Made by a program: the position numbers and the translations under genes | The notes under the pieces: model-generated | Database searches by the model: none | The model's input: only the letters and a program-made list of their open reading frames with translations | Told to the model about the DNA's origin: nothing | From: Anabaena sp. CCY 9613 | GTDB taxonomy: Bacteria > Cyanobacteriota > Cyanobacteriia > Cyanobacteriales > Nostocaceae | Length of the DNA stretch: 40,000 nt | NCBI RefSeq assembly: GCF_963920895.1 | Contig: NZ_CAWUDE010000012.1 | Coordinates: forward strand, 1-40,000 | Direction: 5' to 3' | Shown: in pieces, positions 16,882-37,171 of the stretch | Layout of the letters: the number at the start of each line of letters is the position of its first letter | Numbering within the stretch: the first letter of the stretch is position 1

Positions 16882-17925
16882 TCACTTCTTCCCTAACTGG
16901 CGTTGCAATTGCTTGAAGGATAGATACATTTCTGGCAAGCGATTATAAATAGCAGATATCTTCAGATATAGTTTGTGGGGTATTGCTGGCATTCCGGAGA
17001 CGATTTCCCCTGGTGCAACATCATTATGAATTCCGGCTTTAGCGGATGCGATCGCCCCATCACCAATTTTCACTTGATTGGCAATTCCCGATTGTCCAGC
17101 GAGGATGACGCGATTACCAATTTTGACGCCTCCTGCCATACCGGCTTGACCGGCGATGGCACATCCTGCACCAATTTGGCAGCCGTGTCCTATCTGTACC
17201 ATGTTATCAATTACTGTCCGACGTCCTACTCTTGTTTCCCCTACGGCTGGGCGGTCAATGGCACTGTTGCAGCCTACTTCTACACCATCTTCTAAAACAG
17301 TGTAGCCAGATTGTTCCATTTTTAACCAACCAGTAGGGGTAGGCACAAAGCCAAAACCTTCTGCACCGATGACAGCGCCACTGTGAATTACGCAATCTGC
17401 ACCGATAAGTGTGCGCTCATGTATGGTGCAGTTAGCATGTAAGGTGGTGCGATCGCCTATTTTGGCATCGGGATAAATCACCACATTGGGATGAATTATG
17501 GCATGATTACCAATTTCTACATTTTGCTGAATCACTGCATGGGGGCCAATATAAACATCATTGCCTAGTTTTGCTGTGGGGTGAATCACAGCCGTGGGAT
17601 GAATTTCTGGGCTGGGGCGATATGGCTGGTAGAAGAGGGCGATCGCCTGGGCAAACGTCAGCTTGGGGTTGGGTGTAGCTATCCAAGCTATACCGCGTTC
17701 TTGAGCTTGTGATTGTAATGTTTTGTCTAAAGGCAAAATTAAAGCACTGGCATTTGTTGTGCTGACAAAAGATGCGAATTTTGCGCCTTCTACGTAACTG
17801 AGATTACCAGGTTGAGCTTCATCTAAAGCAGCCAACCCTATAATTGCTGGATCGTAACTTTGCAAAGTTGTCAGGCTATTGTCGGTAGTGGCGTCCAGTT
17901 TACTGATAATTTCACTGAATTTCAT
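16882..17925 (-). CDS. lpxD: UDP-3-O-acylglucosamine N-acyltransferase
   Basis: 347 aa, ATG start. It has the LpxD-type N-terminal domain (MKFSEIISKL...LSYV) followed by a long run of hexapeptide left-handed beta-helix repeats. Confidence 0.92.
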   Translation of the reverse strand: MKFSEIISKLDATTDNSLTTLQSYDPAIIGLAALDEAQPGNLSYVEGAKFASFVSTTNASALILPLDKTLQSQAQERGIAWIATPNPKLTFAQAIALFYQPYRPSPEIHPTAVIHPTAKLGNDVYIGPHAVIQQNVEIGNHAIIHPNVVIYPDAKIGDRTTLHANCTIHERTLIGADCVIHSGAVIGAEGFGFVPTPTGWLKMEQSGYTVLEDGVEVGCNSAIDRPAVGETRVGRRTVIDNMVQIGHGCQIGAGCAIAGQAGMAGGVKIGNRVILAGQSGIANQVKIGDGAIASAKAGIHNDVAPGEIVSGMPAIPHKLYLKISAIYNRLPEMYLSFKQLQRQLGKK

Positions 17926-18355
17926 ATTGTGCTGTTATGAGGTTACATGTTGAAGCGATACAGTTGCTATTTAACCAATTTTTACTTGTAGTCTATATTT
18001 GTGGCTTAATTATCTCAACATTCAGGATATTTACATAAAAAATAATTAGTTCTAAAAATCGGCTATAAGTATTGCTAAATATAGCTTTAATGTTGGCGCT
18101 GAAGACATAAATTTTTCATTTAAACGACCTTTACAAAACAATTTAGTGATGCTGAGTGTAATTACTTATGGCAGTAACTCTACGTCATTATCTGATTGAA
18201 CTCAAATTAATTCAATCTACGTACAAGCACGTTACATTAGTAGTTTTAATTTTTACATTATTTTTTAAAAAGATTTACTGTTTACTAATTTAATTACCTA
18301 GTAATAACACTGATGGCGCACGTATTTCTTCAAACTATCTTTGGATTGCAGTTTG

Positions 18356-19822
18356 ATGAAAAGTGTATTTTTTATGGTAGTAAAAAGTTTAAGATTGAAA
18401 GCGTTTCTTGTACTCCCCTGGGTATTAAGCGGTGTTGGTGAAGTACAAAAAACGTCTTTAGCAACGGTTGTTCAGCCATCATCCAATTATGAAGCAATAG
18501 TAAAGAACAAACCTCAGATCATCAGTATGAATTCGGGAACAACATACTATGTCAGTGGTAGTGGCAACGACAACAATAACGGACGTTCGGCATCGTCTGC
18601 TTTTAGAACAATTCAAAAGGCAGCAAACCTGACTCAGCCAGGAGATACGGTACTGATCATGAACGGAGAGTACAAAAATTCGCACTCTGGCAACGTAGTA
18701 TATATTTCACGCTCTGGAAATGCAAATGCCTGGATTACTTATAAAGCGCATCCTGGACATTCACCGAAGATTAAACACAATGCTTGGCACGGAATTGAGA
18801 TTGATCGAGGCGCTTCTTATATCGAAATCAATGGGCTGGAAGTAGAAGGAAACAATGCCAATATCAGCCTTGATTATGCCAGAAGTCAAAGATATAACGG
18901 TGGCAACCCACTAACAAACGGCAATTGCATCACCCTAGATGGGCGCAAAAATGGTCGTTCGCGTCACATCCGCATTCTCAATAACAAGATACATAACTGC
19001 GGTGGTGGTGGTGTTTCAGTCATTCAATCTGACTACATAACAGTGGATGGCAACGAAATATTTAATAATGCCTGGTACTCTGTATATGCCAACAGCGGCA
19101 TTTCTATGTGGCAGAATTGGAATTCTGATAACAACACCACAGATTACAAGATGATTGTGACCAACAACAAGACTTACAACAATCGTCAGAACATTGAATG
19201 GTTAGCAGTTGGTAGAATCACTGATGGTAATGGCATCATTATCGATGACTCTAGAAATACTCAGAACGGCTCCAATTTGGGTAAATATCGAGGTCGCACT
19301 TTAGTTGCCAACAATGTTACATACAAAAATGGTGGTTCAGGTATTCATACTTATGAGAGTGATCACGTTGATATTGTCAACAATACTGCTGTTTTGAATA
19401 ACCAAAGTCCAGAACTCAGCGGTGGACAAATATTTGCTGCTGATTCATCTGATGTCAAAGTTTTGAACAACATTCTTTATGCTTTCCCTGGTAAGAGAAT
19501 GAATGGTAACTCCCGAAGTACTAACATCACGTACGACCACAATATCTACGCTAATAATGGCAACATAGTTGTGCGAGGGGCTAACGATATTATCGCTGAC
19601 CCGCAGTTTGTTAATCTATCGAAAAATGACTTTCAACTGAAGGCAAATAGTCCAGCTATCGACAAAGGTAGTACATGGAGTATTTTAAAAACTGATTTTG
19701 CTGGCAAACCTCGTCAATCGGGTACTAAATATGATATGGGGGCATACGAATATCAGCATTCAAGTACTCCCACTCATCCTACTACTCCAAATAACCCTAC
19801 ACCAGGTTGCCCTAGTAATTAA
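18356..19822 (+). CDS. Secreted right-handed parallel beta-helix protein (pectate-lyase-fold, DUF1565-like N-terminus), paralogue 1
   Basis: Signal-peptide-like N-terminus MKSVFFMVVKSLRLKAFLVLPWVLSGVG. The motif YYVSGSGNDNNNGRSASSAFRTIQKAANLTQPGDTVLIMNGEY is typical of DUF1565/beta-helix polysaccharide-active enzymes. It has N/G-rich repeating turns and a unique Pro/Thr tail HSSTPTHPTTPNNPTPGCPSN. The track start is TTG 18341, and ATG 18356 is preferred. Confidence 0.8.
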   Translation: MKSVFFMVVKSLRLKAFLVLPWVLSGVGEVQKTSLATVVQPSSNYEAIVKNKPQIISMNSGTTYYVSGSGNDNNNGRSASSAFRTIQKAANLTQPGDTVLIMNGEYKNSHSGNVVYISRSGNANAWITYKAHPGHSPKIKHNAWHGIEIDRGASYIEINGLEVEGNNANISLDYARSQRYNGGNPLTNGNCITLDGRKNGRSRHIRILNNKIHNCGGGGVSVIQSDYITVDGNEIFNNAWYSVYANSGISMWQNWNSDNNTTDYKMIVTNNKTYNNRQNIEWLAVGRITDGNGIIIDDSRNTQNGSNLGKYRGRTLVANNVTYKNGGSGIHTYESDHVDIVNNTAVLNNQSPELSGGQIFAADSSDVKVLNNILYAFPGKRMNGNSRSTNITYDHNIYANNGNIVVRGANDIIADPQFVNLSKNDFQLKANSPAIDKGSTWSILKTDFAGKPRQSGTKYDMGAYEYQHSSTPTHPTTPNNPTPGCPSN

Positions 19823-20046
19823 AATCAATAATATCCTGAAATGCTGATTTTTAGGATGTTACTAGTGGGGTTTTTGCTGCTTTTATTGGACATTTTCATA
19901 ATGCTCATTGCCAATTTATTCTACGGATGAATTACAGCAGGATCATGAATTTCTTATATGAAGTGATAGGATTACCAAAAAGTGCGATAATTCCACAGGA
20001 AGCCGCAAAAGCGCTTCTTTAAGGTAATCTTAGACACCAATTATTG

Positions 20047-21450
20047 ATGAAAATTCTGTTTCCACTAGGAATGAAAAGTTTGAGTTTGCGTGCATTTCTT
20101 GTACTTCCTTGGGTATTAGGTGTTATAGGTGCAGCACAAAAACCAACTTTAACAACCAGTAATCATCCGTTATCCAATCATCAAGAAAGGATAGAGGAAT
20201 CCAAGTTGATTAGTATGAATTCGGGAACAACATACTATGTCAGTGGTAGTGGCAACGACAACAATAACGGACGTTCGGCATCGTCTGCTTTTAGAACAAT
20301 TCAAAAGGCAGCAAACCTGACTCAGCCAGGAGATACGGTACTGATCATGAACGGAGAGTACAAAAATTCCAACTCTGGTCAAGTGGTATATATTTCACGC
20401 TCTGGAAATGCAAATGCCTGGATTACTTATAAAGCGCATCCTGGACATTCACCGAAGATTAAACACAATGCTTGGCACGGAATTGAGATTGATCGAGGCG
20501 CTTCTTATATCGAAATCAATGGGCTGGAAGTAGAAGGAAACAATGCCAATATCAGCCTTGATTATGCCAGAAGTCAAAGATATAACGGTGGCAACCCACT
20601 AACAAACGGCAATTGCATCACCCTAGATGGGCGCAAAAATGGTCGTTCGCGTCACATCCGCATTCTCAATAACAAGATACATAACTGCGGTGGTGGTGGT
20701 GTTTCAGTCATTCAATCTGACTACATAACAGTGGATGGCAACGAAATATTTAATAATGCCTGGTACTCTGTATATGCCAACAGCGGCATTTCTATGTGGC
20801 AGAATTGGAATTCTGATAACAACACCACAGATTACAAGATGATTGTGACCAACAACAAGACTTACAACAATCGTCAGAACATTGAATGGTTAGCAGTTGG
20901 TAGAATCACTGATGGTAATGGCATCATTATCGATGACTCCAGAAATACTCAGAACGGCTCCAATTTGGGTAGATATCGAGGTCGCACTTTAGTTGCCAAC
21001 AATGTCACATACAAAAATGGCGGTTCAGGCATTCATGCATTTTTAAGTGATAATGTCGATATTGTCAACAATACTGCTGTTTTGAATAACCAAAGCCCAG
21101 AACTCAGCGGTGGACAAATATTTGCCGCGGAGTCATCTGATGTCAAAATTTTGAACAATATTTTCTACGCTTTTCCTGGTAAGAGAATGAACGGTAACTC
21201 CAGAAGTTCCAACATCACTTACGACCACAATATCTACGCCAATAATGGCAACATCGTTGTGCAGGGAGATAATGATATTATCGCTGATCCGCAGTTTGTT
21301 AATCTATCGAACAATGATTTTCGACTTAAGGCGAATAGTCCAGCTATCGATAAAGGTACTAACTTTAGTGCCGTAAAAACTGATTTTGCTGGCAATCGTC
21401 GTCCGTCCGGTAAAGGATATGATATCGGGGCGTATGAATATGAAGACTAG
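20047..21450 (+). CDS. Secreted right-handed parallel beta-helix protein, paralogue 2
   Basis: Same architecture as 18356..19822, offset 1688 bp. It has a signal-like N-terminus MKILFPLGMKSLSLRAFLVLPWVLGVIG and lacks the Pro/Thr tail. The track start is TTG 20044, and the ATG is at 20047. Confidence 0.8.
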   Translation: MKILFPLGMKSLSLRAFLVLPWVLGVIGAAQKPTLTTSNHPLSNHQERIEESKLISMNSGTTYYVSGSGNDNNNGRSASSAFRTIQKAANLTQPGDTVLIMNGEYKNSNSGQVVYISRSGNANAWITYKAHPGHSPKIKHNAWHGIEIDRGASYIEINGLEVEGNNANISLDYARSQRYNGGNPLTNGNCITLDGRKNGRSRHIRILNNKIHNCGGGGVSVIQSDYITVDGNEIFNNAWYSVYANSGISMWQNWNSDNNTTDYKMIVTNNKTYNNRQNIEWLAVGRITDGNGIIIDDSRNTQNGSNLGRYRGRTLVANNVTYKNGGSGIHAFLSDNVDIVNNTAVLNNQSPELSGGQIFAAESSDVKILNNIFYAFPGKRMNGNSRSSNITYDHNIYANNGNIVVQGDNDIIADPQFVNLSNNDFRLKANSPAIDKGTNFSAVKTDFAGNRRPSGKGYDIGAYEYED

Positions 21451-21564
21451 GCACAATTAACCTATTGGTTGATCAAATTGCCCTTCGGCAAAGCTAATGC
21501 CTAAATTTACTGTTAGGCAAATAAAGCAACCTGATACTGATTCCTCATTTCTTTAGTAAAAGTT

Positions 21565-21703
21565 GATTTTTTGGCGTTGCTAAATTTAGGGATGAATCTT
21601 ATGGGGTGAATTTCTTAAACGCCCTAAAATACAAGGGACAGGCGAGAAACCCATCCCCAATAAAATTAAAATCATCCAGCAAATATGCAACGCCGATTTT
21701 TTT
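21565..21703. repeat. About 140-nt imperfect palindrome (MITE-like element or large bidirectional terminator)
   Basis: The left arm GATTTTTTGGCGTTGCTAAATTTAGGGATGA...GGGGTGAATTTC is partly complementary to the right arm GAAACCCATCCCC...TCATCCAGCAAATATGCAACGCCGATTTTTTT. It lies between convergent genes (stops at 21450 and 21741). Confidence 0.55.
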
Positions 21704-21740
21704 ACCCTTTCCCCTGAAAGACAAAAGGTTTTGACAAAAG

Positions 21741-23969
21741 TTAACGTTTTTGCAACGCCACATCTTTTTTGCTTAACTTTTCGTGAGGGAAGTATTCTTT
21801 TGCATGATAAAAATAACTGCTAGATTCGTTTTTCTCAATGATTCCATTGACAACTAAACCTAAAACGTTGTGATTGGCTCTGTCTAGCATCTCTTGGGCG
21901 GCAACAGCACTATTATAATCAATTACCTCTGGTCTAGATACTAACAACATCCCATCGGACATGCGATTTAAAGTTAAAGCGTCAGCCGCAAGCAGCAAAG
22001 GAGGAGCATCGATAATTACACAATCGTACTGTGATGCAAACTGTTGAATGAGTGATGCCATGTGCTTGGATTCTAGTAAAGCCAGTGGGTTAGGTGGTCT
22101 AACTCCAGCAGTTAAGACATCCAGGTGATCCATAACTGTATTCACAGCTGTGCGGAATTCAGCCTGTCCTACAAGTACCTCACTCAAACCTGCGGCATTT
22201 GTTAGTTCCCAAAGATGATGCTGAGAAGGCATTCGCATATCTGCATCAATTAATAAAACCTTTCGTCCTAGTTGAGCGATCGCAGCAGCCAAATTAGCGG
22301 AAACTGTAGACTTACCTTCTTTGGGAACTGCACTGGCGACTACAATTGTTTTCACATCCTTATCTGAACTGAGGAATTTCAGATTGGCTTGAATCATCCG
22401 GTACATTTCGCTAGTTAAAGAGTATGGCATATCTCTAACAGCAATCTCAGGGGTAATTGATTCTGGCTCACGATGACGGGAGTTAGCCTTACTCGGCAAC
22501 AAAGGAAGCATCCCTAACGGTGTATAGTTAAATACCTCTCTGACTTCCTTCGTTGTTTTGAGGGATTTATCTCTCAGTTCTAGGAAGAGAACGGCCGTAG
22601 TGGATAAAAATATCCCTGACATCAATCCCAAAGCCAAAACAATCAGTTTTTTCCCTGATGCTGGCTCTGTGGGAACTAAAGCCTGAGCAATAATCCGAGC
22701 ATTGGGTGTAGTTCTATTTTCTGCTACCTCTAATTGTTGAACTTTTTGCAACAAATTTTGATACGTAGTTTCTGCAACTGTAACTTTCCGTTCTAAATCC
22801 CGCTGAGTTTGTACTAATTGGGGTATGTTTCTCAAACGCTGCTCGTAGGTAGAGCGTGAATTGTACAAAGAAGCAACTCTCTGGCTCAGTCCAGAGCGCT
22901 GCACTTCTGATTGCAGCAAATTTTGGATCAAGTTTTGTCTGAGTTCTCCAATCTGTAATAGTCTGGGCGGAACATTGGCTTGATTACCAACAGTCTGGGC
23001 AATTTGCTGTTGTAAGAGGTTTTGTAAACTAGCTCTTCTGGCTACTAGTCCGACTACTACCGGGTTTTCATCTTGGAAACGACTACGCTCATTCGCCAAC
23101 TGTAGTTCCGTTTCTTGAAGTTGTGTCAGCACTCCCTGCACAGCCGGTGACTGACTCAGCGTACTCACAACGATCGCTTCCTGGGAATTTAGGGCAACTT
23201 TCTGCCGTAGTTCATTGGTTTGAGCATTTACCTCAGCTAATTGCGCCTGAACAGTATTAATCTCGTTATTAAGATTGCTAATAAGCCCAACAGATGTCCT
23301 TGTTTCTTCCGGTAAGTCTGCAATGTTGTACTTCTGTCTAAATATGCGTAACTCTTCTTCTGCCTTATTCAGAGCAGCTCGACTTTGAGGCAGCTGCTGA
23401 GACATAAAGTCACGAGTTGCTTCTGCCTCAGAACGATTGATGAGAATATCGTTTTGGAGATAGAGATCCATTATTGTGTTGATTACTGCTGCTGTTTCGT
23501 CAGGTTGACGACTGCTGTAGTTAATTTGCAACACATCTGTGCCACCAACAATTTTTAGATCTAGGGATCTCTCTAGCTCTTTTGCTTCTAGTGGTTCACC
23601 TTTGTCATTCTTGAGTTGTAATTTGTCTATTACCTGCTGCAAAAAAGAAGGAGAAGAAATTACTTGCATTTGAGTACTGATGGGATTTTGAGTAGAGATC
23701 AAAGATCTCAAATCACCTGCTTCTTGTCCTTCTGCTTGACTAGGCAACAAATTATTACCTACTGTTTTAAAAGAAGGCATCCGGAAGAAGAGTTTTCCTT
23801 CTGCCTCATACGAGGGCTTCATCAATGTTGTGGCTACAACACTTAGTCCAAATGTACCTGCCAAAATGAGTAAGACTAGTATCCAGCGCCGTTTCACTGT
23901 TAATAAGTAATGGCTCAAGTCTAAGTCAATAGACTCTTTAGATTCCACAAATTTTTCTGAATTTGACAT
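21741..23969 (-). CDS. wzc: Polysaccharide co-polymerase fused to a BY-type tyrosine autokinase (Wzc/GumC-like)
   Basis: It has an N-terminal TM helix, a long Q/L-rich coiled-coil periplasmic domain and a second TM. The C-terminal kinase has Walker A PKEGKST, Walker A' LLIDADMR and Walker B DCVIIDAPP, plus a short Tyr cluster SSYFYHAKEY. The track start is TTG 24002, and the ATG at 23969 (MSNSEKF) is preferred. Confidence 0.9.
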   Translation of the reverse strand: MSNSEKFVESKESIDLDLSHYLLTVKRRWILVLLILAGTFGLSVVATTLMKPSYEAEGKLFFRMPSFKTVGNNLLPSQAEGQEAGDLRSLISTQNPISTQMQVISSPSFLQQVIDKLQLKNDKGEPLEAKELERSLDLKIVGGTDVLQINYSSRQPDETAAVINTIMDLYLQNDILINRSEAEATRDFMSQQLPQSRAALNKAEEELRIFRQKYNIADLPEETRTSVGLISNLNNEINTVQAQLAEVNAQTNELRQKVALNSQEAIVVSTLSQSPAVQGVLTQLQETELQLANERSRFQDENPVVVGLVARRASLQNLLQQQIAQTVGNQANVPPRLLQIGELRQNLIQNLLQSEVQRSGLSQRVASLYNSRSTYEQRLRNIPQLVQTQRDLERKVTVAETTYQNLLQKVQQLEVAENRTTPNARIIAQALVPTEPASGKKLIVLALGLMSGIFLSTTAVLFLELRDKSLKTTKEVREVFNYTPLGMLPLLPSKANSRHREPESITPEIAVRDMPYSLTSEMYRMIQANLKFLSSDKDVKTIVVASAVPKEGKSTVSANLAAAIAQLGRKVLLIDADMRMPSQHHLWELTNAAGLSEVLVGQAEFRTAVNTVMDHLDVLTAGVRPPNPLALLESKHMASLIQQFASQYDCVIIDAPPLLLAADALTLNRMSDGMLLVSRPEVIDYNSAVAAQEMLDRANHNVLGLVVNGIIEKNESSSYFYHAKEYFPHEKLSKKDVALQKR

Positions 23970-24474
23970 AATTTTTCCTTTACAAGTAAGGGTTGGCAAC
24001 AAAAAAATTAGATTTTATTTAGAAGAGAATTTCAAGTAATACTGCAACCATAAATGCACTGATGGGACTTAACAATAGTGTTGACTAACTAGGTTGCAAA
24101 ATTGAGAATTTTTCGATGTGGGTATTTGCTTGACTTGTTTTGTTAATTGCTGCTTGTTTGTATTGCTGTATCTCAAAAAATATAAACAACAGAGGAAGGA
24201 GGAAGTATGAATAGGATCTTATCAGTCTTTGGTAGTATGATCAAGAGCATTAATAGAATCACATTCATTTCTAAATTTGCATCTGATGAGAGAATATTAT
24301 TGCAACTCGCTGCATGATAAATAATCCTTATTCTCAATATATGTCAATCATTTATTAATAATAAATTAATTTAGCATAAGTGCCTGATATCATCGTAAAA
24401 TACCTCCCCAGATATATTGCCTTCTTATCAATCAAATTCAAAGATTAACTTTCTTAACAAAGCAGAATATTCCC

Positions 24475-25245
24475 TTAGCGCTTTACTAATATTGCTTGAG
24501 TAATTCGTTGTTTGAACACACGATAAAAGAATAGTGGATTGCCTACAATATAACGTTTCCAAAGACGATTAGGCTCAACAATTAAGCGGGTTAACCACTC
24601 AAAACCATTATCAGTTAGCCAACGCGGCCCACGATATACAGATTCAGTATAGAAATCTAGACATGCTCCTAGAGGTAAAAACACACGCGTGTCAATTTTA
24701 TGGAAGTTATCTTGAATCCAGCGTTCCTGTAATGGCATACCAAAGCCGACATATAAAACATCTGGCTTAAATTTATTAATTTTCTCAATTACAGCTTCTT
24801 CTTCTGCTCCAGATTTTTCAAAATAACCGTGATGTCCTTCTATGCGTAAATTAGGAGCTATCTCCAGCAACTTGCTAATTGCTTTATCTGTTACGCCTGG
24901 TTTACCAGCCAGCAAAAATAAAGAAACATTCTGTTGCTCACAAGCTAACGCTAAAGTTTCTATATAATCAGGACAAGTCATACGATGTGCGGGTTCCATT
25001 TGGTAGCCCAAAATTTTTGCTCCCAGTGACACACCAAATCCATCGCAAAATACTAAATCAGCATTGTTTATAAAATTGCGATACCAAGGTAACTCACATG
25101 CAAAGTTGATTCCTCGCACATTGACATTAGCGATAGTTCTTTTTTGCTCGATTTTCCCACTGGCTACGATGTAACTTATTAAGTCATTTACTGTTAATGT
25201 ATGAAATCTTGTATCTAATATTTTTATTTCAGAAAATCTTTCCAT
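24475..25245 (-). CDS. WecG/TagA/CpsF-family glycosyltransferase (GT26)
   Basis: 256 aa, ATG start. The pattern NVNVRGINFA...ADLVFCDGFGVSLGAKILG...LFLLGGKPGV-like...DVLYVGFGMPLQERW is typical of the GT26 family. Confidence 0.88.
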   Translation of the reverse strand: MERFSEIKILDTRFHTLTVNDLISYIVASGKIEQKRTIANVNVRGINFACELPWYRNFINNADLVFCDGFGVSLGAKILGYQMEPAHRMTCPDYIETLALACEQQNVSLFLLAGKPGVTDKAISKLLEIAPNLRIEGHHGYFEKSGAEEEAVIEKINKFKPDVLYVGFGMPLQERWIQDNFHKIDTRVFLPLGACLDFYTESVYRGPRWLTDNGFEWLTRLIVEPNRLWKRYIVGNPLFFYRVFKQRITQAILVKR

Positions 25246-25276
25246 TTGGTACCTCTACAGCTTAAAAATATGTAAA

Positions 25277-26335
25277 TTAAATCATCACTGAATGATAAAT
25301 TTTGAACAAATGAATTAAATATTTATCTACATCAAAAGGTTGGATACTTTCTCTGGCGTTCTCACCTATTTCCTGCCTTAGCTCTTGATTTACAATCAAA
25401 CTCTGCATCGCTATTGATAATTCTTTAATATTCCCTGGTTTCACTAGTAACCCATTTTTATCAGGAATTACTAGCTCTGGAATACCTCCAACTGGTGTAG
25501 TAATCACAGGTAATCCCCAACTCATAGCTTCAAGTAGTGCCATTGGTAACCCTTCATTGTATGAAGGTAAAACAAAAACATCCGCTTTTTTCAAAAGTGC
25601 ATCTCTTTCTTGTTCATTTACCCAATCTAAAATAGTAATTTGGTTGCTTAAATTCAGATTTTTGACTAAATCTCTAGCTCTTTTACCATCTCCATCTCCC
25701 GCCATAGTCAACTCTGAATTTTGTCTTTGTTCATGAGGAATCGCCGCGAAAGCTTCAATTAAATCAAATGCTCCTTTGCGTTCACCAATTCGGCCTAAAA
25801 ACAAAAAATTGACTTTTTGAAAATTTGTTCTTGGCGGTACTTCTACCGGGAGTTTAACTGGGTTAGGTAATACAACTACCTGCTTTGGGTTTAAGCCTAG
25901 ATTATCGACGTAGAATTTTTTCCAACTATCTGATAAAACAATAAAACGTGTAGATTTACAAAATGCCCATCTTAATACTGCTTGGAATATTCTGGGTATC
26001 TTTGAGTAAAATACATGAAAATCAGCACTATGGGTGTGAAGAATGACTGGTTTTTGCAGTAACCAAGCAATTAAAGTAGTGATTGACTGGCGCCAAGCAC
26101 TACCTCGTTCTGAGACATGGATATGAACAATGTCAGCTTCTTGTTTTAATAGTTGCCAAAATAATAAGACTAAAGCTTGAAAAAATACTAATACTTTGAT
26201 GAGTGTAGATCCCTTGGGTAAAGTAGATATATGATGAATTTGCACCTCAGCAGGAGCTTGTTTAATTATTAGCTTTTCAACTGAAACTATTCCTCCTTGA
26301 TTTTTTAGGCTTTCTCCTAGCATTAAAATTCGCAT
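25277..26335 (-). CDS. Glycosyltransferase family 4 (GT-B, retaining)
   Basis: 352 aa with the C-terminal EX7E region PSYNEGLPMALLEAMSWGLPVITTPVGGIPELV. Confidence 0.88.
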   Translation of the reverse strand: MRILMLGESLKNQGGIVSVEKLIIKQAPAEVQIHHISTLPKGSTLIKVLVFFQALVLLFWQLLKQEADIVHIHVSERGSAWRQSITTLIAWLLQKPVILHTHSADFHVFYSKIPRIFQAVLRWAFCKSTRFIVLSDSWKKFYVDNLGLNPKQVVVLPNPVKLPVEVPPRTNFQKVNFLFLGRIGERKGAFDLIEAFAAIPHEQRQNSELTMAGDGDGKRARDLVKNLNLSNQITILDWVNEQERDALLKKADVFVLPSYNEGLPMALLEAMSWGLPVITTPVGGIPELVIPDKNGLLVKPGNIKELSIAMQSLIVNQELRQEIGENARESIQPFDVDKYLIHLFKIYHSVMI

Positions 26336-26392
26336 TCCATAAATCCTTAATTTATTATATTTATTGTTTCGATATCCCTCTTTTTGTCTATT

Positions 26393-27637
26393 TTAAGCTA
26401 TTAATTTTTCTTGATTTTTAGGAATTATGGGCAATGATAAAACCAAGGCAATGTAAAGTACCCAAACAATAGTGTTTGAGTCCAATAATGCGGATTCAGT
26501 CAAATTGAATGTGGCTATATAAGTAAGATGGATGGCCGGCAAAATATCTGCTGCTGTTTTACTACTACGTACCCAAGTAAATGCGTGGCGGCAACTACGC
26601 CAGAATCCTATAAAGAATAAAACTAATCCTAACAGGCCTAAATCCAGCCACAGTGCCAAAAACCCGTTGTGAGGATGAGTCGGTGTCCATCCGGCTGCTC
26701 GCCAAACATATGCCGATTCTCCATTAAAACCTTGCCAAAATCCACCGTAACCATAACCAAACCAAGGTTGTTGCCAAATCATTTCCATCACAAATGGCCA
26801 TAAATCTGCCCGACCAGTAAGTGTCGCATCTCTGCCAATTGAAGCAAATAAGACATCGGCATTATCACTCAACCAAAAAGAAAAAGCCTGACTAATGGTT
26901 ATCAACATCATTTGCGTTGGTATCATCACTATGTATGGCCAACGAAAAGTCCGAAAAACAAAAAATGCAAATACAAGGACGAAGAGATTGACAACAGATG
27001 AAGTTGAATCTGCAAGCACTAAAAGTAGGATTGATAAGCTCAACCCACCCCACATGAGCCAACTATGCTTTTTACTTTGATAAGCTAAAAGGAGAAAAAC
27101 GATCCCACTATTGACCATTTTTGCTCCCAGTCCATTTTTATGTATAAAGACTCCGCGCCACCTTCCTTGATGAATACCGCCCATGATCCCGTATGAGGGT
27201 AAAGCTATAGCAAAGATGAAACTCAATATTACAGCAATGCCAAATGTCCAACCCAACAACTGTAATTGCTGTTTTAAAGTATAACGAGAGGCTAAATAAA
27301 CTCCAAATAAACTGGAACCAATAAGTGTAAAACTGTCTTTAATTGTTGTACCAGGCTCAAAAGACCAAATAACTGAAACAGCCGCAAGAATGATTAAAGG
27401 AAAAAGCCAGCGGTCTTTACTAAAGACATAAAGAGTTTTTTTCCAACGCAAAACTAATAATACGAAGGTAACTACATAAATTAATAAATTAATTATTCTA
27501 ATTAATGAACTATCAAACTCAACAACTTCATTTTCTTGCATCCCTCCTGAGAGGATAAGAGTTAATATTGCCCCTGAATAAATCAGTAAGACAGTAACTG
27601 TAAATGCCTGTTCAGCAAAAAGTAAGAGCTTTTTCAT
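26393..27637 (-). CDS. wzy: O-antigen polymerase/ligase-family membrane protein (Wzy-type)
   Basis: About 10-12 TM segments and a Wzy_C-like loop (WTPTHPHNGFLALWLDLGLLGLVLF). The track start TTG 27649 overlaps the upstream stop (TTGA). The alternative ATG at 27637 is used here. Confidence 0.8.
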   Translation of the reverse strand: MKKLLLFAEQAFTVTVLLIYSGAILTLILSGGMQENEVVEFDSSLIRIINLLIYVVTFVLLVLRWKKTLYVFSKDRWLFPLIILAAVSVIWSFEPGTTIKDSFTLIGSSLFGVYLASRYTLKQQLQLLGWTFGIAVILSFIFAIALPSYGIMGGIHQGRWRGVFIHKNGLGAKMVNSGIVFLLLAYQSKKHSWLMWGGLSLSILLLVLADSTSSVVNLFVLVFAFFVFRTFRWPYIVMIPTQMMLITISQAFSFWLSDNADVLFASIGRDATLTGRADLWPFVMEMIWQQPWFGYGYGGFWQGFNGESAYVWRAAGWTPTHPHNGFLALWLDLGLLGLVLFFIGFWRSCRHAFTWVRSSKTAADILPAIHLTYIATFNLTESALLDSNTIVWVLYIALVLSLPIIPKNQEKLIA

Positions 27638-27645
27638 AAACTGAT

Positions 27646-28755
27646 TCAAGATTTATTTTTTATCTTTATTGCCTGGTGATAAACTTGGACTGTTTGCGCC
27701 GCAATATTTGTCCAATTTAAATCTTGCTGACAGCGTGCTAATGCCGCAGTTTGCATCTGCTGTTGTAAGTTGCGATCGCCTAATAACCGGATGATGGCAT
27801 CAGCTAAGGCTGTAACATCTTTGGGAGGAACTAGTAAACCATCTTTTTCATGGGCAACTATTTCTTGCAAACCCCCAATATCAGAAGCAATTATTGGTGT
27901 TCCCATGCCATAAGATAAAGTTGCTACGCCACTTTGTGAAGCTTCAATGTAGGGTAAAACGGAAACGGCACTACGTTGGAATAGCCCTGAAACCTTTTCT
28001 AAGGGTATGAAGTCATTTATCAGTTCGATGTGGCTGGTATCGTAACCATCGGGAAAATATTGCTGGATATTTTCTCCCCGTCCAGCAATAATCAATTTGA
28101 CTTCCGGAATTTTGGCAGCAACCAATGGTAGTGCTTCTAACAAGTAGTTTAATCCTTTATATGGCCAGATTCTGCCGAAGAATAATAATGTATAAGGGTC
28201 TCTTGGTAAACTGTGTTGCCCTGATCGACGTTGGTATAAACTGCCGAGTTCCCCATGTGGTAACACGTTAACTCGCTGTTGTGGTACCCGAAAATCTTGA
28301 ATCAGTGCTTGTTTTAAAGCTTCAGCATGAACGATAATTTGCTGAGAGCGATAAAATGCAATACGCCTAGTATATTCTGCACCGAATACAACTTGGCGAT
28401 CGCCTGGATGACGATATACATCATGAATCGTTGTTACCAATGGCGGCATTTGATTTAGCAGCAACGTCAAGTCATACCACGGATCGTTAGTTTCTTGTAC
28501 ATGTAACACATCTGGTTGCACATCTTTGATAATCCGCATCATGGCGCGCATAGATGACAAGTTGTGCGGATCACGCATCCGTGGCTTTTTAAAGCTGATG
28601 ACGCGAATACTGGGGTCGAGAACATCGCCACAGGTAGCGGCAACATTTTCTGGTTGAATTACTGTTAAATCAACGTACTTAACTAGACTATTGGCTAACT
28701 CAATAGTATAGTCTTCAAAGCAAAAATGTAGTAAAGCAACTTTTGTCACTCGCAT
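27646..28755 (-). CDS. Glycosyltransferase family 4
   Basis: 369 aa, ATG start. It has the GT-B C-terminal motif LPYIEASQSGVATLSYGMGTPIIASDIGGLQEIV. Confidence 0.88.
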   Translation of the reverse strand: MRVTKVALLHFCFEDYTIELANSLVKYVDLTVIQPENVAATCGDVLDPSIRVISFKKPRMRDPHNLSSMRAMMRIIKDVQPDVLHVQETNDPWYDLTLLLNQMPPLVTTIHDVYRHPGDRQVVFGAEYTRRIAFYRSQQIIVHAEALKQALIQDFRVPQQRVNVLPHGELGSLYQRRSGQHSLPRDPYTLLFFGRIWPYKGLNYLLEALPLVAAKIPEVKLIIAGRGENIQQYFPDGYDTSHIELINDFIPLEKVSGLFQRSAVSVLPYIEASQSGVATLSYGMGTPIIASDIGGLQEIVAHEKDGLLVPPKDVTALADAIIRLLGDRNLQQQMQTAALARCQQDLNWTNIAAQTVQVYHQAIKIKNKS

Positions 28756-28934
28756 TTCTCCATGTTTAGCACCTTGTCACAATTATTAAGGTCAATTTCT
28801 TCATTACCTAGTATGCTAAATATCAGTTAACAACTAACAACCCTTACTAGATAACCAAAGTTGTTTAAACTGCCAATCTTTGTTACTTAACTCATATTTC
28901 AGCATAACTAGTAATGAAGAAGGAGTAATTTTTA

Positions 28935-30140
28935 TTACTTTGATTCCTTAACTTTTTTTATTAAAAAAGGCTTGGATACTTTTTGTAGATTGGATTTTAA
29001 ATTAGCACGAGCAATTATATATTTGGTAGCTTGTACTAAATCGTCACGACCTATAGATGCAAACAAAGGTATCAGACTCTGATATTTTCCTTTTTCCAAC
29101 AGAGTTTTTGGATGTGCAAACTTTATCAGCCTTTCTTTCGTAAGCTCCTTGACAGGAAAAATATTCGTTTTGTCTAATACATCTAACGCCGCAAGGTGTG
29201 CCATTGTTATTGTACATTTATGACAAATACCACAGTTTAAATAACCAGTGGGTAAAACTAATTCATCACAAACTCTAAGGTTTTGGAACGCGACATCCCA
29301 ACCCACTACTAATTTAGTTTTATCTAACCTGGATAAATGCACGCTATCATACTTAACACGCAAATCATAACTGCTGTAATTGGGATCTGTTAAAGGATGT
29401 GAACCCCAAGGCTCGATATGCTTTATTTCACTAGTAGAGGCTACATACACTAAATTCAATCGGTTGACAAAAGCATGTGCAATAGCTGATAAGGCAGAGC
29501 CACCAAAATAGTATTTCCAGAAATTGTAATTGCTATCTTCTAAGTCTTTTACATGTCTATATATATTGGTATAAACTGGAATTAAGTTTATTCCGGCATC
29601 TTTAGTTACTGGTAATAGTGAAATAAAAGCTTTCTCAAATGCTTCTAAAGTAGTATTTGCTATCCCGTAAACTATAAAACCATCTTTAATTGAAGCTGGA
29701 TGATCTTGTCCAAAGTTAAGACGGTTATTTCGCAAAGTGGCAAAGGTATCTACGCCACCTGAAAAAAACATCCCCGCCCTTTGAGGTCTAACTGTGTTTG
29801 ATGTCTTAAAATTAGTTTTTGCCTCTATTTGCACAATATCACGATCTAATTTGTACCAAGATCTCATCCAATGCATTGACGTAATTAAACCATCACGCAA
29901 TTCTGGACAAATTTCTGCTTCTTCTGTATCTATAAAAATTCTTGTTTCCCCATAGTGAAAAGCTAGCATGGTACAAGCTATGAGAAAAGTATTGGGGTTG
30001 CAGGATAAGTCATTGGCAAATTCTTTAGTAGTAGCAACGTAGATTTCTTGAGAGGGTCGATCCCGATCTTCCCAAACTACAGTCGCTGCGACTCTGGTCA
30101 AATTTTCTTTTTCATACTTTGTAAAGTTACTAATCTTCAT
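28935..30140 (-). CDS. Uncharacterised protein with a PP-loop-like (SGGxDT) nucleotide-binding signature and a C-terminal Cys cluster
   Basis: 401 aa. The ATG overlaps the stop of the flippase gene (ATGA at 30137-30140). Residues 122-136 read AGMFFSGGVDTFATL (nt 29745-29762 encode SGGVDT), and NCGICHKC lies near residue 305. I recognise no named family, so the function is inferred only. Confidence 0.6.
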   Translation of the reverse strand: MKISNFTKYEKENLTRVAATVVWEDRDRPSQEIYVATTKEFANDLSCNPNTFLIACTMLAFHYGETRIFIDTEEAEICPELRDGLITSMHWMRSWYKLDRDIVQIEAKTNFKTSNTVRPQRAGMFFSGGVDTFATLRNNRLNFGQDHPASIKDGFIVYGIANTTLEAFEKAFISLLPVTKDAGINLIPVYTNIYRHVKDLEDSNYNFWKYYFGGSALSAIAHAFVNRLNLVYVASTSEIKHIEPWGSHPLTDPNYSSYDLRVKYDSVHLSRLDKTKLVVGWDVAFQNLRVCDELVLPTGYLNCGICHKCTITMAHLAALDVLDKTNIFPVKELTKERLIKFAHPKTLLEKGKYQSLIPLFASIGRDDLVQATKYIIARANLKSNLQKVSKPFLIKKVKESK

Positions 30141-31585
30141 GTTTCTCCTTCACTTTTTTTAAAAAATTTTGCCCACAGAACATTGACACCGCCTAATGTA
30201 TTGACCGCTAAAAAACTAGCTATCAAAGCATAGGCACAAATTGACACAATCAAAACTACCACAAAATCAAGTTGATATCTTTGTAGTAACAAGAATACTA
30301 ATGCCATGCTCACGCCAATTACCAATGGACGATACATTATTCTCCATATATTCAATGAAAATAACCGACTGTACACACCATACATAAGTATGCTAAAAGC
30401 CGTTAAACTCATTGACAAATACATAAAAGCTGCACCCATTAACTGAAATTGTGAAATTAATACTACACCTGCTATATTTCCCACGGCATTGGTAATAATC
30501 ACTTCTTTCAGGTTATATCTCTCTAATCCATTAGATAAAAGCAGATAACCTAATGTGCGGACAAATGGACTAGCCAGTACGGCTAATGCAGTCAATTTAA
30601 GCACTAAATCTACTTGATTAAAATCAGAATTTTTATAAATAAATGTTATTAAATCATTACCAATAAAGTGTATACCAATCACAAATGGTAAGGCTATACA
30701 CATCAGCATTGTAATAATATTTTCTGTGACTTGCGCCTGTTTCTTTTTGCCACTATTTACGGCTTTTGTCATCCCTGGAAAAGCAGCAAGACTGACACTC
30801 TGAATAATCATCGTAATGGGTTGCATTAATTGGAGAACAGCACCAAAAAGACCAACCATGACTTCACTCCCCAAGAGTGAGATAATGAGAATACTTGTTT
30901 TACTAGTGATTATTCCTACTGCATCAATAGCAAAAAATGTCCGAGCAGATTTTAATAATTGCCGGATAAAACCTTGCTTAATCTCCCATCTCGGTCTAAT
31001 CATGCTGGTGAGCATGACCCATTGAATAATAAAAACTATTACTTCGGAAACAACAAATATTCCCGCTATATAATTGACCCCATAATTTAGTTCTTGCATA
31101 CACCATATCATTACTACTAAACGTAGAATGTAAACTGGCACCGTTGAGACAGCTATCAAAGTCATTTTTTCTTGAGCTTGAAAAATTGCCTCCGTTATAT
31201 TAGAAAGTGAAAAAGGAATAATTGCTAGACCCATGATGTAGCAAACCATTGAGGTCTCAGGATTGTAGGGCAATAAAAACACCAATATAATCATTGCTCC
31301 ATAACCAAGGACACTCAAAAGTATTTGCAAGAAAGTGCCATTGACTAGATACACGGGTATTTCTTCGGGATTGCGAGAAAGTTCTCGTGTAAATAAGGTT
31401 TTTAATCCCTGTGACGCAATACTCGCAAACACAAAATAGTAGCTGAATGCTAGTAAATATTGACCTAATTCATAAGCACCTAAATTACGGGCTATGGCTG
31501 CTGTTAACACAAAAGTAGCGATACTTTGTATTAAACGAGTAACTAATAATGATAGAGAATTTGTAATTAAGGTGCGTTTTTCCAT
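30137..31585 (-). CDS. wzx: Wzx-type oligosaccharide flippase (MOP/polysaccharide-biosynthesis family)
   Basis: 482 aa, ATG start, with about 12-14 hydrophobic helices. The N-terminus LLVTRLIQSIATFVLTAAIARNLGAYELGQY is typical of PST/Wzx proteins. Confidence 0.85.
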   Translation of the reverse strand: MEKRTLITNSLSLLVTRLIQSIATFVLTAAIARNLGAYELGQYLLAFSYYFVFASIASQGLKTLFTRELSRNPEEIPVYLVNGTFLQILLSVLGYGAMIILVFLLPYNPETSMVCYIMGLAIIPFSLSNITEAIFQAQEKMTLIAVSTVPVYILRLVVMIWCMQELNYGVNYIAGIFVVSEVIVFIIQWVMLTSMIRPRWEIKQGFIRQLLKSARTFFAIDAVGIITSKTSILIISLLGSEVMVGLFGAVLQLMQPITMIIQSVSLAAFPGMTKAVNSGKKKQAQVTENIITMLMCIALPFVIGIHFIGNDLITFIYKNSDFNQVDLVLKLTALAVLASPFVRTLGYLLLSNGLERYNLKEVIITNAVGNIAGVVLISQFQLMGAAFMYLSMSLTAFSILMYGVYSRLFSLNIWRIMYRPLVIGVSMALVFLLLQRYQLDFVVVLIVSICAYALIASFLAVNTLGGVNVLWAKFFKKSEGET

Positions 31586-31678
31586 ATTTTTTATAGTAAA
31601 TATTTTTATAATTTTTAGCAGATAATATATATTATCTGCTATGCTTGGGTGTTTTATTTATTTTTTATAGTTTTCACT

Positions 31679-32707
31679 TTAAATCTTTAAAATCTTTTGG
31701 TCTTTACTACGATAAAACATGTCGTATGCTGCTGTATTGCCAAAAATGTAACGCTGTATGCGACGATTTGTAATACCAGGAAATTGGATAGAGAAATGCC
31801 AGAAAAAGTAAGGATTACGTACCATTTCTATCACACATCTAAACCATTGTCGTTGCTTTAATGAGTCTACAACACGGTAATAAGCTAAATTTTTTTTAAA
31901 GACAGTAAGATTTTTAGATAAAGCATAAGCTACTTCAGGTTTTTGCCTCAAACAGTCTTCTTGATCGATAAAAGCTACAGTTGCTTGACAATCTTGTTCG
32001 AGACGCTTGACTTTAGATGAATAAACTAGAGAACCGGGACGAGAACGATAATAATAATAAGGTTTTGGTAGAAGAAAAAATCTCGCTCCTCTTATCAAAC
32101 ATTTCAGGGCTAACCAAAAATCTTCGCTCACCTTCATTAAGGGATCATATTTAATGTCATGTTTCAACATAAAATCTCGCCGGAATAAAGGCTTTGATAA
32201 GCCAAGGTGTAGCCCTTGTTGTCCATACACATCTGTTTCCACAAAATATTGCGGATCAATTTGCTTGATTTCTGCAACAACTTCCCCGCTTTCGTTAATT
32301 AGTGTACTCCAGGGAGCATCTTCACCGTCTCTAATCAAAAATAAATCATCAGCAATTATATCTGCATTTTGTGCGTGTGGTAACTGTAGAAGTTTTTCTA
32401 GTCTTTCCGGAGCATACCAGTCATCGGAGTCTAAAACAGCAATCCATCTGCCTTTGGCTTCCTTCAAGGCCCGATTACGTGTAGCAGCCACTCCCAGATT
32501 TTGAGGATTTACAAAAACTTTTAGTCGTTCATCTGTAAAGCTTCTAGCTACTTCGGGTGTCCCATCAGTGGAGGCATCATCTACTACAATTACCTCAATA
32601 TTTTTCAAAGTTTGCTCCAAGGCCGACTCAATTGTTTGGGAAATGTAGCCTGCGGTATTATAGGCAGGAATAATGACCGATACTTCTGGATTCATGTTGA
32701 TAGTCAT
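31679..32707 (-). CDS. Glycosyltransferase family 2
   Basis: 342 aa with VSVIIPAYNTAGYISQTIESALEQTLKNIEVIVVDDASTDGT and the DxD motif LDSDD. An alternative ATG lies at 32695. Confidence 0.9.
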   Translation of the reverse strand: MTINMNPEVSVIIPAYNTAGYISQTIESALEQTLKNIEVIVVDDASTDGTPEVARSFTDERLKVFVNPQNLGVAATRNRALKEAKGRWIAVLDSDDWYAPERLEKLLQLPHAQNADIIADDLFLIRDGEDAPWSTLINESGEVVAEIKQIDPQYFVETDVYGQQGLHLGLSKPLFRRDFMLKHDIKYDPLMKVSEDFWLALKCLIRGARFFLLPKPYYYYRSRPGSLVYSSKVKRLEQDCQATVAFIDQEDCLRQKPEVAYALSKNLTVFKKNLAYYRVVDSLKQRQWFRCVIEMVRNPYFFWHFSIQFPGITNRRIQRYIFGNTAAYDMFYRSKDQKILKI

Positions 32708-32895
32708 CGATGAGAAATTCTCAGGTGTATTTACTAGTTGATTGGGTTATGCCAAATATGAGGATAGTCAGTTTTTACAGGCTGTTATCAATTATCTTTT
32801 GAGAAGTATTGTTAGCAAGCCTTCTACTTGAAGCCCATATTTGGTGTTTTTTGTCAAGGTGTAATTCCTAAGAATCTGGAAATACTAGGACTGTT

Positions 32896-34572
32896 TTAAG
32901 CCTCAACGGTGGCGTTAGTCACTGGGAGTCTTACTAGTGGGCTGCCTTCAAAATAGTTGGGAATGGGCGCCCCCATTAATTCTAAAATTGTGGCTGACAC
33001 ATCTACTGCTTCGGCGTTAGGCAAATCAGAACCTGGTTGGATATCAGGCCCCTTTGCCAAAACAAATCCTCTGTTCCAGTGACCACCTGCGCGGAAGTGA
33101 GTTAGGGGGCCAATGCGTCCAAAGTCGGGACTATCTACGACATCAGTCATGCTCTCATGCCATAAAACAGCCAAGTCAAAATCTGGCAGATGAGGATCGT
33201 TATCTAGAGGATTTTCTCTTGTCCGCACAACTTCTTTAACTATGGGTTCTCCAGTTCTGCCATCTTTGAGACGACATAGCACTTCGGCAATTTCATCACA
33301 GAGGGAATGATATTCAGCAGCGGTGACTACACCATGAGGATCTCTGCCTTGAAGATTGATGCGAATATGTCCATTGGTGAAAGAAGGTATACCAAAAGCT
33401 TTCATTTTTGTCCACAGAGGTTGATACCAACGTGCAGGCATCCAACCCATAGGCACCGATTGTTCCATCAATGGGTAAGGAGAAGCTAAACCGTTTTGGT
33501 TAGCATGTAAGAACTTACTAGGTGTCCAGGGTTTGAGGAAGCGTTTAATGGGATTTGGCTCATAATTTTTTACCCAAACTTCTCCAGGCCAAGAGTTCCG
33601 CAGGGGTTTACTGACTGTTGGTGGTAGAGGATCTCCTACTTTACCAGGTGCGATCGCAACTTGTTCGGGAAAGTTAAATCGATACAAAACTTCGGGCAAA
33701 AAGACCATACTCAGCATATCGCTGTAGTTAGGCCCCATACCATGAAGTGAAAAACATACTACATAAGCATCTTCGGGAGCTTCAGCTAATATTGTGCCGA
33801 TGGCCCTATCGATATTTTCATAGGTTTCAAATAATATATCAGGAGTGCCAGTTTTACTCAGGTCGGAATGTAGGGGATGATCTGGTTGGCTATAGTTATA
33901 TATGTCATGACCAGCAGTGTGTGGCTCACCAAATACTGCTAAGAATAAATCCCAAGGTTCTTTTTTTAATAAGTCACAGCAGATTTTAGTACGACTGTCA
34001 ATACTTTCTTTAAGTGCTTGCTGCAACCATTTGACGTAATCTTTATCCCACCAAATACCATCATCATTGAAGAGAATGGGATTTTTGCCATATTGATTAA
34101 TAATTTCCGAATAGACTTCAGGGGGATGAGAATGACTAGGTGTATAAGGAAAATGTCCTCCCCATCCTAAAATTTGGGTGCCGTTGACTTCATCAGAAAG
34201 CCTAGTTACAGGTAAATCAAAAATAGCGACTTTGTATTTGTCTCCTAAGGCATAAAATGGGGAATATTCTTGATAATCATAGCCACTTAGAGCTAGATCA
34301 CATTCCATATCATACTTTTTGTCATCATACCTAAAGGAGTCCCAATAGCCTGTTTTATGAGGCTTACAACCAGTAGAAAATGCAGACCACAATGGCTCGG
34401 TTACAGCAAATTCGGTTGTTTTACCGCAGTATTCGACTGTATTCTTAATCCGACCATAGGTTCCTTGCTGACGCAGTTTAGCAATATTTTTGAGGTGCCC
34501 TTGTGACATCCATTTTTCTAGTAATACTGGATCTGCTGCATCTAAACCAATGGCAATTACAGGTTTTTTCAT
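32896..34572 (-). CDS. Alkaline-phosphatase-superfamily enzyme (type I phosphodiesterase/nucleotide pyrophosphatase-like), no signal peptide
   Basis: 558 aa. The N-terminus KPVIAIGLDAADPVLLEKWMSQGHLKNIAKL, followed by VTEPLWSAFSTGCKPHKTG, fits the metal-ligand Asp plus Thr-nucleophile layout of NPP/AP-family proteins. Later HG/GGH motifs (FSLHGMG, RAGGHW) fit the second metal site. Confidence 0.75.
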   Translation of the reverse strand: MKKPVIAIGLDAADPVLLEKWMSQGHLKNIAKLRQQGTYGRIKNTVEYCGKTTEFAVTEPLWSAFSTGCKPHKTGYWDSFRYDDKKYDMECDLALSGYDYQEYSPFYALGDKYKVAIFDLPVTRLSDEVNGTQILGWGGHFPYTPSHSHPPEVYSEIINQYGKNPILFNDDGIWWDKDYVKWLQQALKESIDSRTKICCDLLKKEPWDLFLAVFGEPHTAGHDIYNYSQPDHPLHSDLSKTGTPDILFETYENIDRAIGTILAEAPEDAYVVCFSLHGMGPNYSDMLSMVFLPEVLYRFNFPEQVAIAPGKVGDPLPPTVSKPLRNSWPGEVWVKNYEPNPIKRFLKPWTPSKFLHANQNGLASPYPLMEQSVPMGWMPARWYQPLWTKMKAFGIPSFTNGHIRINLQGRDPHGVVTAAEYHSLCDEIAEVLCRLKDGRTGEPIVKEVVRTRENPLDNDPHLPDFDLAVLWHESMTDVVDSPDFGRIGPLTHFRAGGHWNRGFVLAKGPDIQPGSDLPNAEAVDVSATILELMGAPIPNYFEGSPLVRLPVTNATVEA

Positions 34573-34638
34573 CTTCCTTCAAATTTCTTGTACTTGTAAA
34601 TAACTGACGTAGTTAAGATGGTTTTTTGTGCCTGATAC

Positions 34639-36576: not shown

Positions 36577-36616
36577 TATATAGAGAAAGGTATTTTTTTA
36601 TATCGAGAAAGGTATT
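36577..36616. repeat. Two 18-bp direct repeats, 22 bp start to start
   Basis: TATATAGAGAAAGGTATT (36577-36594) and TATATCGAGAAAGGTATT (36599-36616) match at 17 of 18 positions. They lie about 490 bp upstream of the priming-transferase start. Confidence 0.85.
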
Positions 36617-36759
36617 CTTTGCAGATGAGTGGCTGAAAATTTCAACATTTTAGTAATAATCAACAAATTTTAGTTATTTCAGCCACAATACTTGAATGTT
36701 TGACTCTGGAGTGCTAAAAACAAGGTGTTCCTTATCCATAAAAAACATCTAAAATACTA

Positions 36760-37148: not shown

Positions 37149-37171
37149 TTTGAGATTTTCGATGCCCGTTT

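Follow-up and report, generated by a model that had tools for sequence, protein, structure and literature searches.

A tandem pair of beta-helix genes in Anabaena sp. CCY 9613 whose interior was very probably homogenised by gene conversion

Concerted evolution of duplicated genes through gene conversion has been well documented for bacteria, with psbA and psbD of Nostocales among the examples (PMC6053082, Wang & Chen 2018). The tuf genes also belong to the duplicated prokaryotic genes described as evolving in concert (PMC6053082; Santoyo & Romero 2005, as cited there). Islands of divergence inside conversion tracts are known as well and have been described for the GOT1 paralogues of Tigriopus (PMC3728101). 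The subject of the present work is a pair of tandem genes, called here A1 and A2 (paralogues 1 and 2), located in a 40,000-nt stretch of the genome of Anabaena sp. CCY 9613 (the window; contig NZ_CAWUDE010000012.1, positions 1 to 40,000) and coding for proteins with a predicted right-handed beta-helix. Judging from comparison of sequences, A1 and A2 are very probably an old tandem duplicate, the interior of which has been homogenised by interlocus gene conversion. They present a new, unusually clean example of a known process, found in an uncharacterised enzyme family.

Identity pattern and orthology of the two copies

An original prediction, made from the window alone, described A1 and A2 as sharing an identical core flanked by diverged ends and took this for the signature of recent gene conversion. 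Ungapped comparison of the two genes at an offset of 1688 nt reproduces every coordinate of that description: 18524-18681 and 18698-19251 are identical to their counterparts in A2, and the 16-nt patch between them carries six mismatches (18682, 18683, 18691, 18692, 18694 and 18697), which produce the change of SHSGNV to SNSGQV. The upstream region is diverged as claimed, with approximately 65-72% identity 5' of 18524 and a 3-nt indel that brings the local offset to 1691. The downstream region, said to include many synonymous changes, retains 87% identity: some 66 of 507 nt differ, and Nei-Gojobori counts put down 36 of these differences as synonymous; identity per 50 nt varies between 76 and 96% in 19252-19756. 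A1 alone extends into QHSSTPTHPTTPNNPTPGCPSN, the tail that had been assigned to the first copy. The proteins are 88% identical as a whole.

The exact comparison finds these differences clustered and not spread evenly along the genes. Permutation tests of the GENECONV type, proposed together with the prediction, gave identical runs far beyond chance lengths: the longest one has 554 nt, compared with at most 127 nt across 5000 permutations of the pairwise differences (reached in 0/5000), and 65 concordant polymorphic sites follow in a row, compared with at most 17 across 20000 permutations (0/20000). In the core, with its approximately 150 synonymous sites, the synonymous divergence (dS) between A1 and A2 is 0; it reaches 0.56 in the 5' segment and 0.43 in the 3' third. 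In this third, the ratio of nonsynonymous to synonymous divergence (dN/dS) is about 0.19 for the A1-A2 pair and ranges from 0.11 to 0.19, as expected for purifying selection on both copies; both genes are therefore considered functional.

The age of the two-gene structure can be judged from the sole other species of the same genus in our collection (G001), a metagenome-assembled genome (MAG) labelled Cyanocohniella sp. LLY or Nostoc sp. LLA-1. This congener repeats the layout of CCY 9613, fabF … lpxD – copy 1 (B1) – copy 2 (B2), with the tail carried by B1. A check of copy number and boundaries in relatives had been recommended, and it finds in the congener the same pair with flanks orthologous copy for copy. 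Informative sites were taken from a codon alignment of A1, A2, B1 and B2 and classified as orthologous (A1=B1, A2=B2) or paralogous (A1=A2, B1=B2). All 43 sites in 18371-18523 are orthologous, with no paralogous one among them, and so are both sites of the patch (18683 and 18697). They are followed by 46 paralogous sites in 18701-19222 and four more up to 19384. Positions 19408-19817 contribute 29 orthologous sites, and a single paralogous site, 19612, stands isolated within the 3' third; two sites in the whole alignment are crossed. The flanks thus total 72 orthologous sites versus 46 paralogous ones in the core. Maximum-likelihood trees follow the same division, separating (A1,B1) from (A2,B2) in the 5' segment (support 92), grouping A1 with A2 in the core and separating (A1,B1) from (A2,B2,B3) in the 3' segment (support 96), where B3 is a third copy of the congener described below.

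In the 5' segment, dS between orthologues is 0.088 for A1-B1 and 0.055 for A2-B2, matching the baseline of 0.06-0.12 found between the two species in the flanking lpxD, fabF and CCG genes, and the intercopy spacer of CCY 9613 is 92% identical to that of the congener. Flanks and spacer are orthologous copy for copy, whereas in the core the copies of each genome cluster together. The arrangement of two genes accordingly existed before the species separated, and the identical core is much younger. The first identical tract (18524-18681) is a special case, as it is nearly identical in A1, A2, B1 and B2 and its dS between the species (0.03-0.09) equals the baseline, so that its homogenisation may predate the species split.

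The 16-nt patch codes for SHSGNV in A1, SHSGHV in B1, SNSGQV in A2, SNPGQV in B2 and SGSGHV in B3. His111 versus Asn111 and Asn/His114 versus Gln114 are copy-specific in both species, with homogenised sequence on either side. The patch is thus best read as a remnant of old differences between the copies, located in a hypervariable loop, and not as a set of new mutations. The end of the tract is fixed here within 4 nt, between the last orthologous site (18697) and the first paralogous one (18701). Among 95 family members, the columns of the patch have an entropy of 2.4-3.0 bits, compared with a domain mean of 1.1, and relatives have indels at this place. The loop immediately follows a conserved cap motif, GDT-[VL]-IMNG-x-Y.

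Ten clustered differences in 19342-19369 turn HTYESDH, present in A1, B1 and B2, into HAFLSDN in A2. This second short copy-specific block of A2 (AFLSDN) resembles SYLSDN of the third congener copy (HSYLSDN in full). Since B2 equals B1 in the block, the homogenised stretch extends further in the 3' direction in the congener than in the genome of CCY 9613.

Multiple events, recurrence and rival explanations

Between the two species, the second identical tract shows dS of 0.33-0.39, with the excess concentrated in 18932-19251 (81-89% identity). This excess points to a diverged core imported from another paralogue in one of the lineages. The dS between B1 and B2 in the same tract is 0.13, approximately at the baseline, so the congener pair may have stayed unconverted since the split. 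A candidate for a further participant is the third congener copy, B3 (L013:5155-6576, contig C158 / JAKOMP010000138.1). Scored at the 51 paralogous sites, B3 is a mosaic: in 18701-19019, 12 of 17 sites agree with the B state, and in 19057-19326 about 24 of 31 agree with the A state. It also combines a 3' third of the copy-2 type with a tail of the copy-1 type (…DCPTN). Its neighbours are two Mob_Pre (MobV relaxase) genes, a helicase gene and a gene for a ShlB/FhaC-type transporter; because of the adjoining Mob_Pre and helicase genes, B3 is probably carried on a mobilisable element. The history of the pair thus comprises multiple events, with three or more paralogues involved, and the beta-helix family evolves in this genus as a small recombining network.

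Tandem pairs with partly equalised copies are found in other Nostocales as well. Anabaenopsis circularis NIES-21, a complete genome (AP018174.1; L014:10001-13237), has an equivalent pair convergent with wzc. Identity of its copies begins 15 nt before the start codon (ATG) and includes 2 mismatches in about 443 nt; it then continues at 90-98%, and over the final 300 nt it is down to 62-74%. A tandem pair is also present in Nostoc sp. CHAB 5844, where it converges with an open reading frame of 748 amino acids occupying the position of wzc (assigned by this position); the two copies there display a weaker identity gradient of 63-90%. Partial homogenisation with differing endpoints therefore recurs in independent assemblies. 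Orthology of copy 1 and copy 2 was not recovered across genera, as the C-terminal third groups the NIES-21 copies and splits those of CHAB 5844; one ancient duplication for all genera is accordingly not claimed.

Identity of the core could, in principle, be maintained by purifying selection on the catalytic part without any recombination, an alternative raised in the original prediction, and the core does contain the invariant residues of the family. Nevertheless, selection for a shared core cannot by itself produce dS of 0 over about 150 synonymous sites, none of which has changed between the copies even though the same region differs between the species by dS of 0.33-0.39. As synonymous sites are identical too, selection at the protein level does not explain the identity, and this explanation can be regarded as already refuted. 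A recent duplication of a single gene, with ends subsequently overwritten or rapidly diverged, is suggested by the tandem layout and identical interior, both looking like a young duplicate, and by the single copy beside wzc that is common among relatives. It conflicts with the congener, in which each end of each copy, like the spacer, has a one-to-one orthologue whose divergence is at the baseline, and with the non-coding flanks of the copies, which share no homology, and we hold it to be very improbable. Hardly more credible is an artefact in which a short-read graph collapsed both cores and wrote the same consensus twice, the true copies differing throughout. The assembly is a draft of 117 contigs with many contigs of 56-57 nt, typical of graph-based assemblers. 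The patch with its six mismatches nevertheless survives inside the identical stretch, and orthology with the congener shows its phase relative to both flanks to be correct; a variant core was found on no spare contig; exact repeats as long as 1827 nt were placed deep within long contigs (C4/C8); and independent assemblies contain similar tracts, namely an exact run of 164 nt in the congener, in addition to the nearly identical stretch of NIES-21.

Interlocus conversion within an old duplicate is thus the explanation that we strongly favour, in keeping with the original prediction of recent gene conversion: the core without synonymous change between diverged flanks, the permutations, the blocks of informative sites and the trees all argue for it. 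Several points weigh against it or restrict it. The congener is a MAG, and B3 lies on a separate 13-kb contig. Divergence of 18932-19251 reaches 3-4x the baseline, for which a single simple conversion is insufficient. The copies of NIES-21 are identical at the patch loop. A few real differences in the core could be hidden if a graph-based assembler wrote one consensus twice. On the side of function, catalytic residues were not identified, and the local Pfam model PF22842.2 gave no match. Selection keeping the patch loops different was rejected as a general rule because of the identical loops in NIES-21; it is possible for the pair of CCY 9613.

The most probable course of events is the following. 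Duplication preceded the split of the CCY 9613 species from the congener, and non-reciprocal homologous recombination later homogenised the interiors of the genes. In the latest event, about 554 nt (18698-19251), possibly all 728 nt, were copied from one copy, either A1 or A2, onto the other, too recently for any later substitution to have occurred. Tracts would end where local identity becomes too low for strand exchange: the fast-evolving segment of signal peptide and linker would set the 5' limit, and the 3' limit would fall within the more diverged C-terminal third. The internal limit would be given by six mismatches in 16 nt of a hypervariable surface loop, acting as a barrier to strand exchange or restored by mismatch repair; a heterology of 16 nt appears to stop the tracts. 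With tract ends mapped to a few bases and orthologues available in a second species, A1 and A2 provide a well-controlled case of partial concerted evolution in bacteria, one that leaves the understanding of gene conversion and of polysaccharide synthesis unchanged.

Gene architecture, genomic context and candidate function

Features of the locus are listed in Table 1. As the original prediction stated, the pair is divergent from lpxD and convergent with wzc, both of these flanking genes lying on the minus strand and the pair on the plus strand. The start codon of A1 is ambiguous (TTG at 18341 or 18353, ATG at 18356 or 18374), and the public gene call of 488 amino acids begins at 18356; candidate starts of A2 are TTG 20044, ATG 20047 and ATG 20071. 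A1 and A2 are the sole copies in the genome according to a whole-genome search, which also found no leftover fragment of the core elsewhere. The genome assembly of CCY 9613 has an N50 of 244 kb. Upstream regions of A1 and A2 do not align past the start codon, and the repeat unit appears to be the coding sequence alone, the non-coding flanks of the copies sharing no homology. A scan of 17800-21800 with Rfam returned matches at chance level, with no riboswitch in the 415-nt leader, and a promoter and terminator scan was uninformative for both genes. The gap of 290 nt between A2 and wzc contains two terminator-like hairpins on the minus strand (21498-21658).

Table 1. Coordinates of the gene pair, its segments and neighbouring genes in the window
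Feature	Position	Strand	Remarks
lpxD	16882-17925	-	divergent from the pair
A1 (paralogue 1)	18356-19822	+	predicted signal peptide, disordered linker, right-handed beta-helix, choice-of-anchor Q, Pro/Thr tail
5' segment, diverged	18353-18523	+	signal peptide and linker
Identical tract 1	18524-18681 (= 20212-20369)	+	158 nt, 0 differences
Unconverted 16-nt patch	18682-18697 (= 20370-20385)	+	residues 110-115
Identical tract 2	18698-19251 (= 20386-20939)	+	554 nt, 0 differences; beta-helix turns to residue 300
3' third, diverged	19252-19756	+	last helix turns and choice-of-anchor Q
Pro/Thr tail of A1	19757-19822	+	copy 1 only; ends GCPSN
Spacer between A1 and A2	19823-20043		no homology to the region upstream of A1
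A2 (paralogue 2)	20047-21450	+	architecture of A1 without the tail; C-terminus YEYED
wzc (PCP/BY-kinase)	21741-24002	-	convergent with the pair; Wzz, GNVR and ParA/AAA_31 domains

The wzc gene is the first one of a Wzx/Wzy polysaccharide cluster, which extends to 36114 and codes for Wzc, WecG, GT4, Wzy, GT4, an unnamed protein of 401 amino acids, Wzx, GT2, a phosphodiesterase-type protein and a priming transferase (Bac_transf). In NIES-21, wzc is followed by genes for GH10, WecG, GT4, Wzy, GT4 and Wzx, and the gene on the other side of the pair codes for PPDK, not LpxD. GH10 is located between wzc and WecG in NIES-21; the window of CCY 9613 contains no GH10 gene. Linkage to the cluster is thus independent of the other neighbour. 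The earlier suggestion that the pair belongs to the polysaccharide island is supported by this conserved linkage, since the pair, convergent wzc and the same cluster are kept in NIES-21 and, with wzc assigned by position, in CHAB 5844. In 11 of the 33 homologue loci, one of them from another taxonomic family, wzc is no more than 1.5 kb away. The island (17926-37171) has a GC content of 0.38 versus 0.436 to the left, and the pair is situated at its edge. Of the 30 sites that the HIP1 motif (GCGATCGC) has in the window, 4 fall in the island and 21 in the 17.9 kb preceding it.

The family includes more than 2600 relatives at E ≤ 1e-10, mostly cyanobacterial among the named ones, and is present in 65 of the 301 genomes of the taxonomic family that were searched, with 1-4 copies in each. 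Some relatives are fused to SLH domains. Most relatives end 0-2 residues past GAYEY. A Pro/Thr tail ending in C-P-[ST]-N was found in A1, B1 and B3 alone among 120 homologues and is confined to this genus; no remnant of the tail was found downstream of A2. No publication dealing with this protein family or with 'choice-of-anchor Q' was found.

Both proteins begin with a hydrophobic, signal-like segment, and they would be exported by the Sec pathway. Their C-termini match the choice-of-anchor Q model (NF041518) with 51.5 bits for A1 and 57.7 bits for A2, the cut-off being 25. An AlphaFold2 (AF2) model built from an alignment of 95 sequences replaced a single-sequence model of low confidence (predicted local distance difference test, pLDDT, 36); its mean pLDDT is 85.8, with residues 1-58 disordered and a confident right-handed beta-helix. 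Foldseek search against the PDB listed, in this order, GH136 lacto-N-biosidases, Pel9A (PL9), GH120 XylC, a PL9 rhamnogalacturonan lyase, AlgE4, PL6 and RbmB. The local Pfam library gave a marginal match to PF13229 as its only one. PF22842.4 (Pel9A-like) is present in the precomputed annotation of A1 and its relatives, while PF22842.2 was silent in local hmmscan and in the genome search, so the Pel9A-like call depends on the model version. The family profile matches GH136 chain 7v6m with E 2.3e-13, the match being confined to the N-terminal cap and, weakly, to a stretch at the C-terminus; as the PDB sequence search aligns just these two parts, catalytic residues are not transferable.

The identical core (residues 58-300) contains the family-invariant D227, Y228, D291 and D298. 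The invariant D227, D291 and D298, together with the near-invariant K212 and K266, are no more than candidates for PL9 catalytic and Ca2+-binding residues. The beta-helix fold fits the earlier proposal of a secreted enzyme that modifies or degrades polysaccharide, the functional part of which is still an inference. A1 and A2 may cut or modify the polymer of the adjacent Wzx/Wzy cluster, as putative lyases, hydrolases or epimerases. The catalytic body would be common to both, and the differences would lie in one loop, the C-terminal third and the Pro/Thr-Cys tail of copy 1. A rather doubtful, though not negligible, extension is that selection maintains a two-enzyme system, in which conversion unifies the catalytic body while the loop 110-115, the C-terminal third and the Cys tail are held apart; if true, the pair would represent two differently targeted or differently localised glycanases, and the third copy, carried on a plasmid, would spread variant cores among strains. 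As an unstudied beta-helix family found repeatedly with wzc in clusters of Nostocales, these proteins are reasonable candidates for trimming or modifying cyanobacterial slime polymers, which are of applied interest.

Comparison with known systems

Among proteins of known structure, Pel9A (PDB 1ru4) resembles A1 and A2 in its right-handed beta-helix and the same N-terminal cap motif (Foldseek E 4.7e-11, TM-score 0.51/0.61), and the PL9 rhamnogalacturonan lyase (5olq) shows the same class of likeness. Unlike PL9 enzymes, to which their identity is about 16%, A1 and A2 have a choice-of-anchor Q C-terminus, and the PL9 catalytic Lys and Ca-binding Asp were not located in them. GH136 enzymes (LnbX, BsaX and TnX; 5gqc, 7v6i and 7v6m) provide the best Foldseek E-value, 4.8e-13, and in 7v6m the best profile match; the alignment covers the N-terminal cap as well as the C-terminal '…DIGA-E' end. 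Their central catalytic region, however, is not aligned by sequence; GH136 enzymes are also of larger size, and their substrates are human-milk oligosaccharides. The lyase RbmB of Vibrio (9ozd) and the AlgE/AlgG epimerases (2pyg) belong to the same fold class and are likewise coded for beside polymer biosynthesis genes, their similarity being distant and structural only (E 1e-4 to 1e-6).

Regarding the conversion pattern, A1 and A2 are similar to the GOT1 paralogues of Tigriopus in that a short block of old copy-specific differences persists between homogenised stretches. In A1 and A2, the patch may be retained by selection or simply by mismatch density; the loop is identical in the pair of NIES-21. 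With tuf, psbA and psbD the pair shares the principal traits of concerted evolution: paralogues within a genome are closer than orthologues, synonymous sites are homogenised, orthologues are marked by synteny and several lineages are affected. Unlike these genes, A1 and A2 are homogenised only internally, with both ends remaining orthologous. Moreover, they are not subunits of core complexes but predicted accessory secreted enzymes coded for in a low-GC polysaccharide island, and a third, plasmid-linked copy participates in their exchange.

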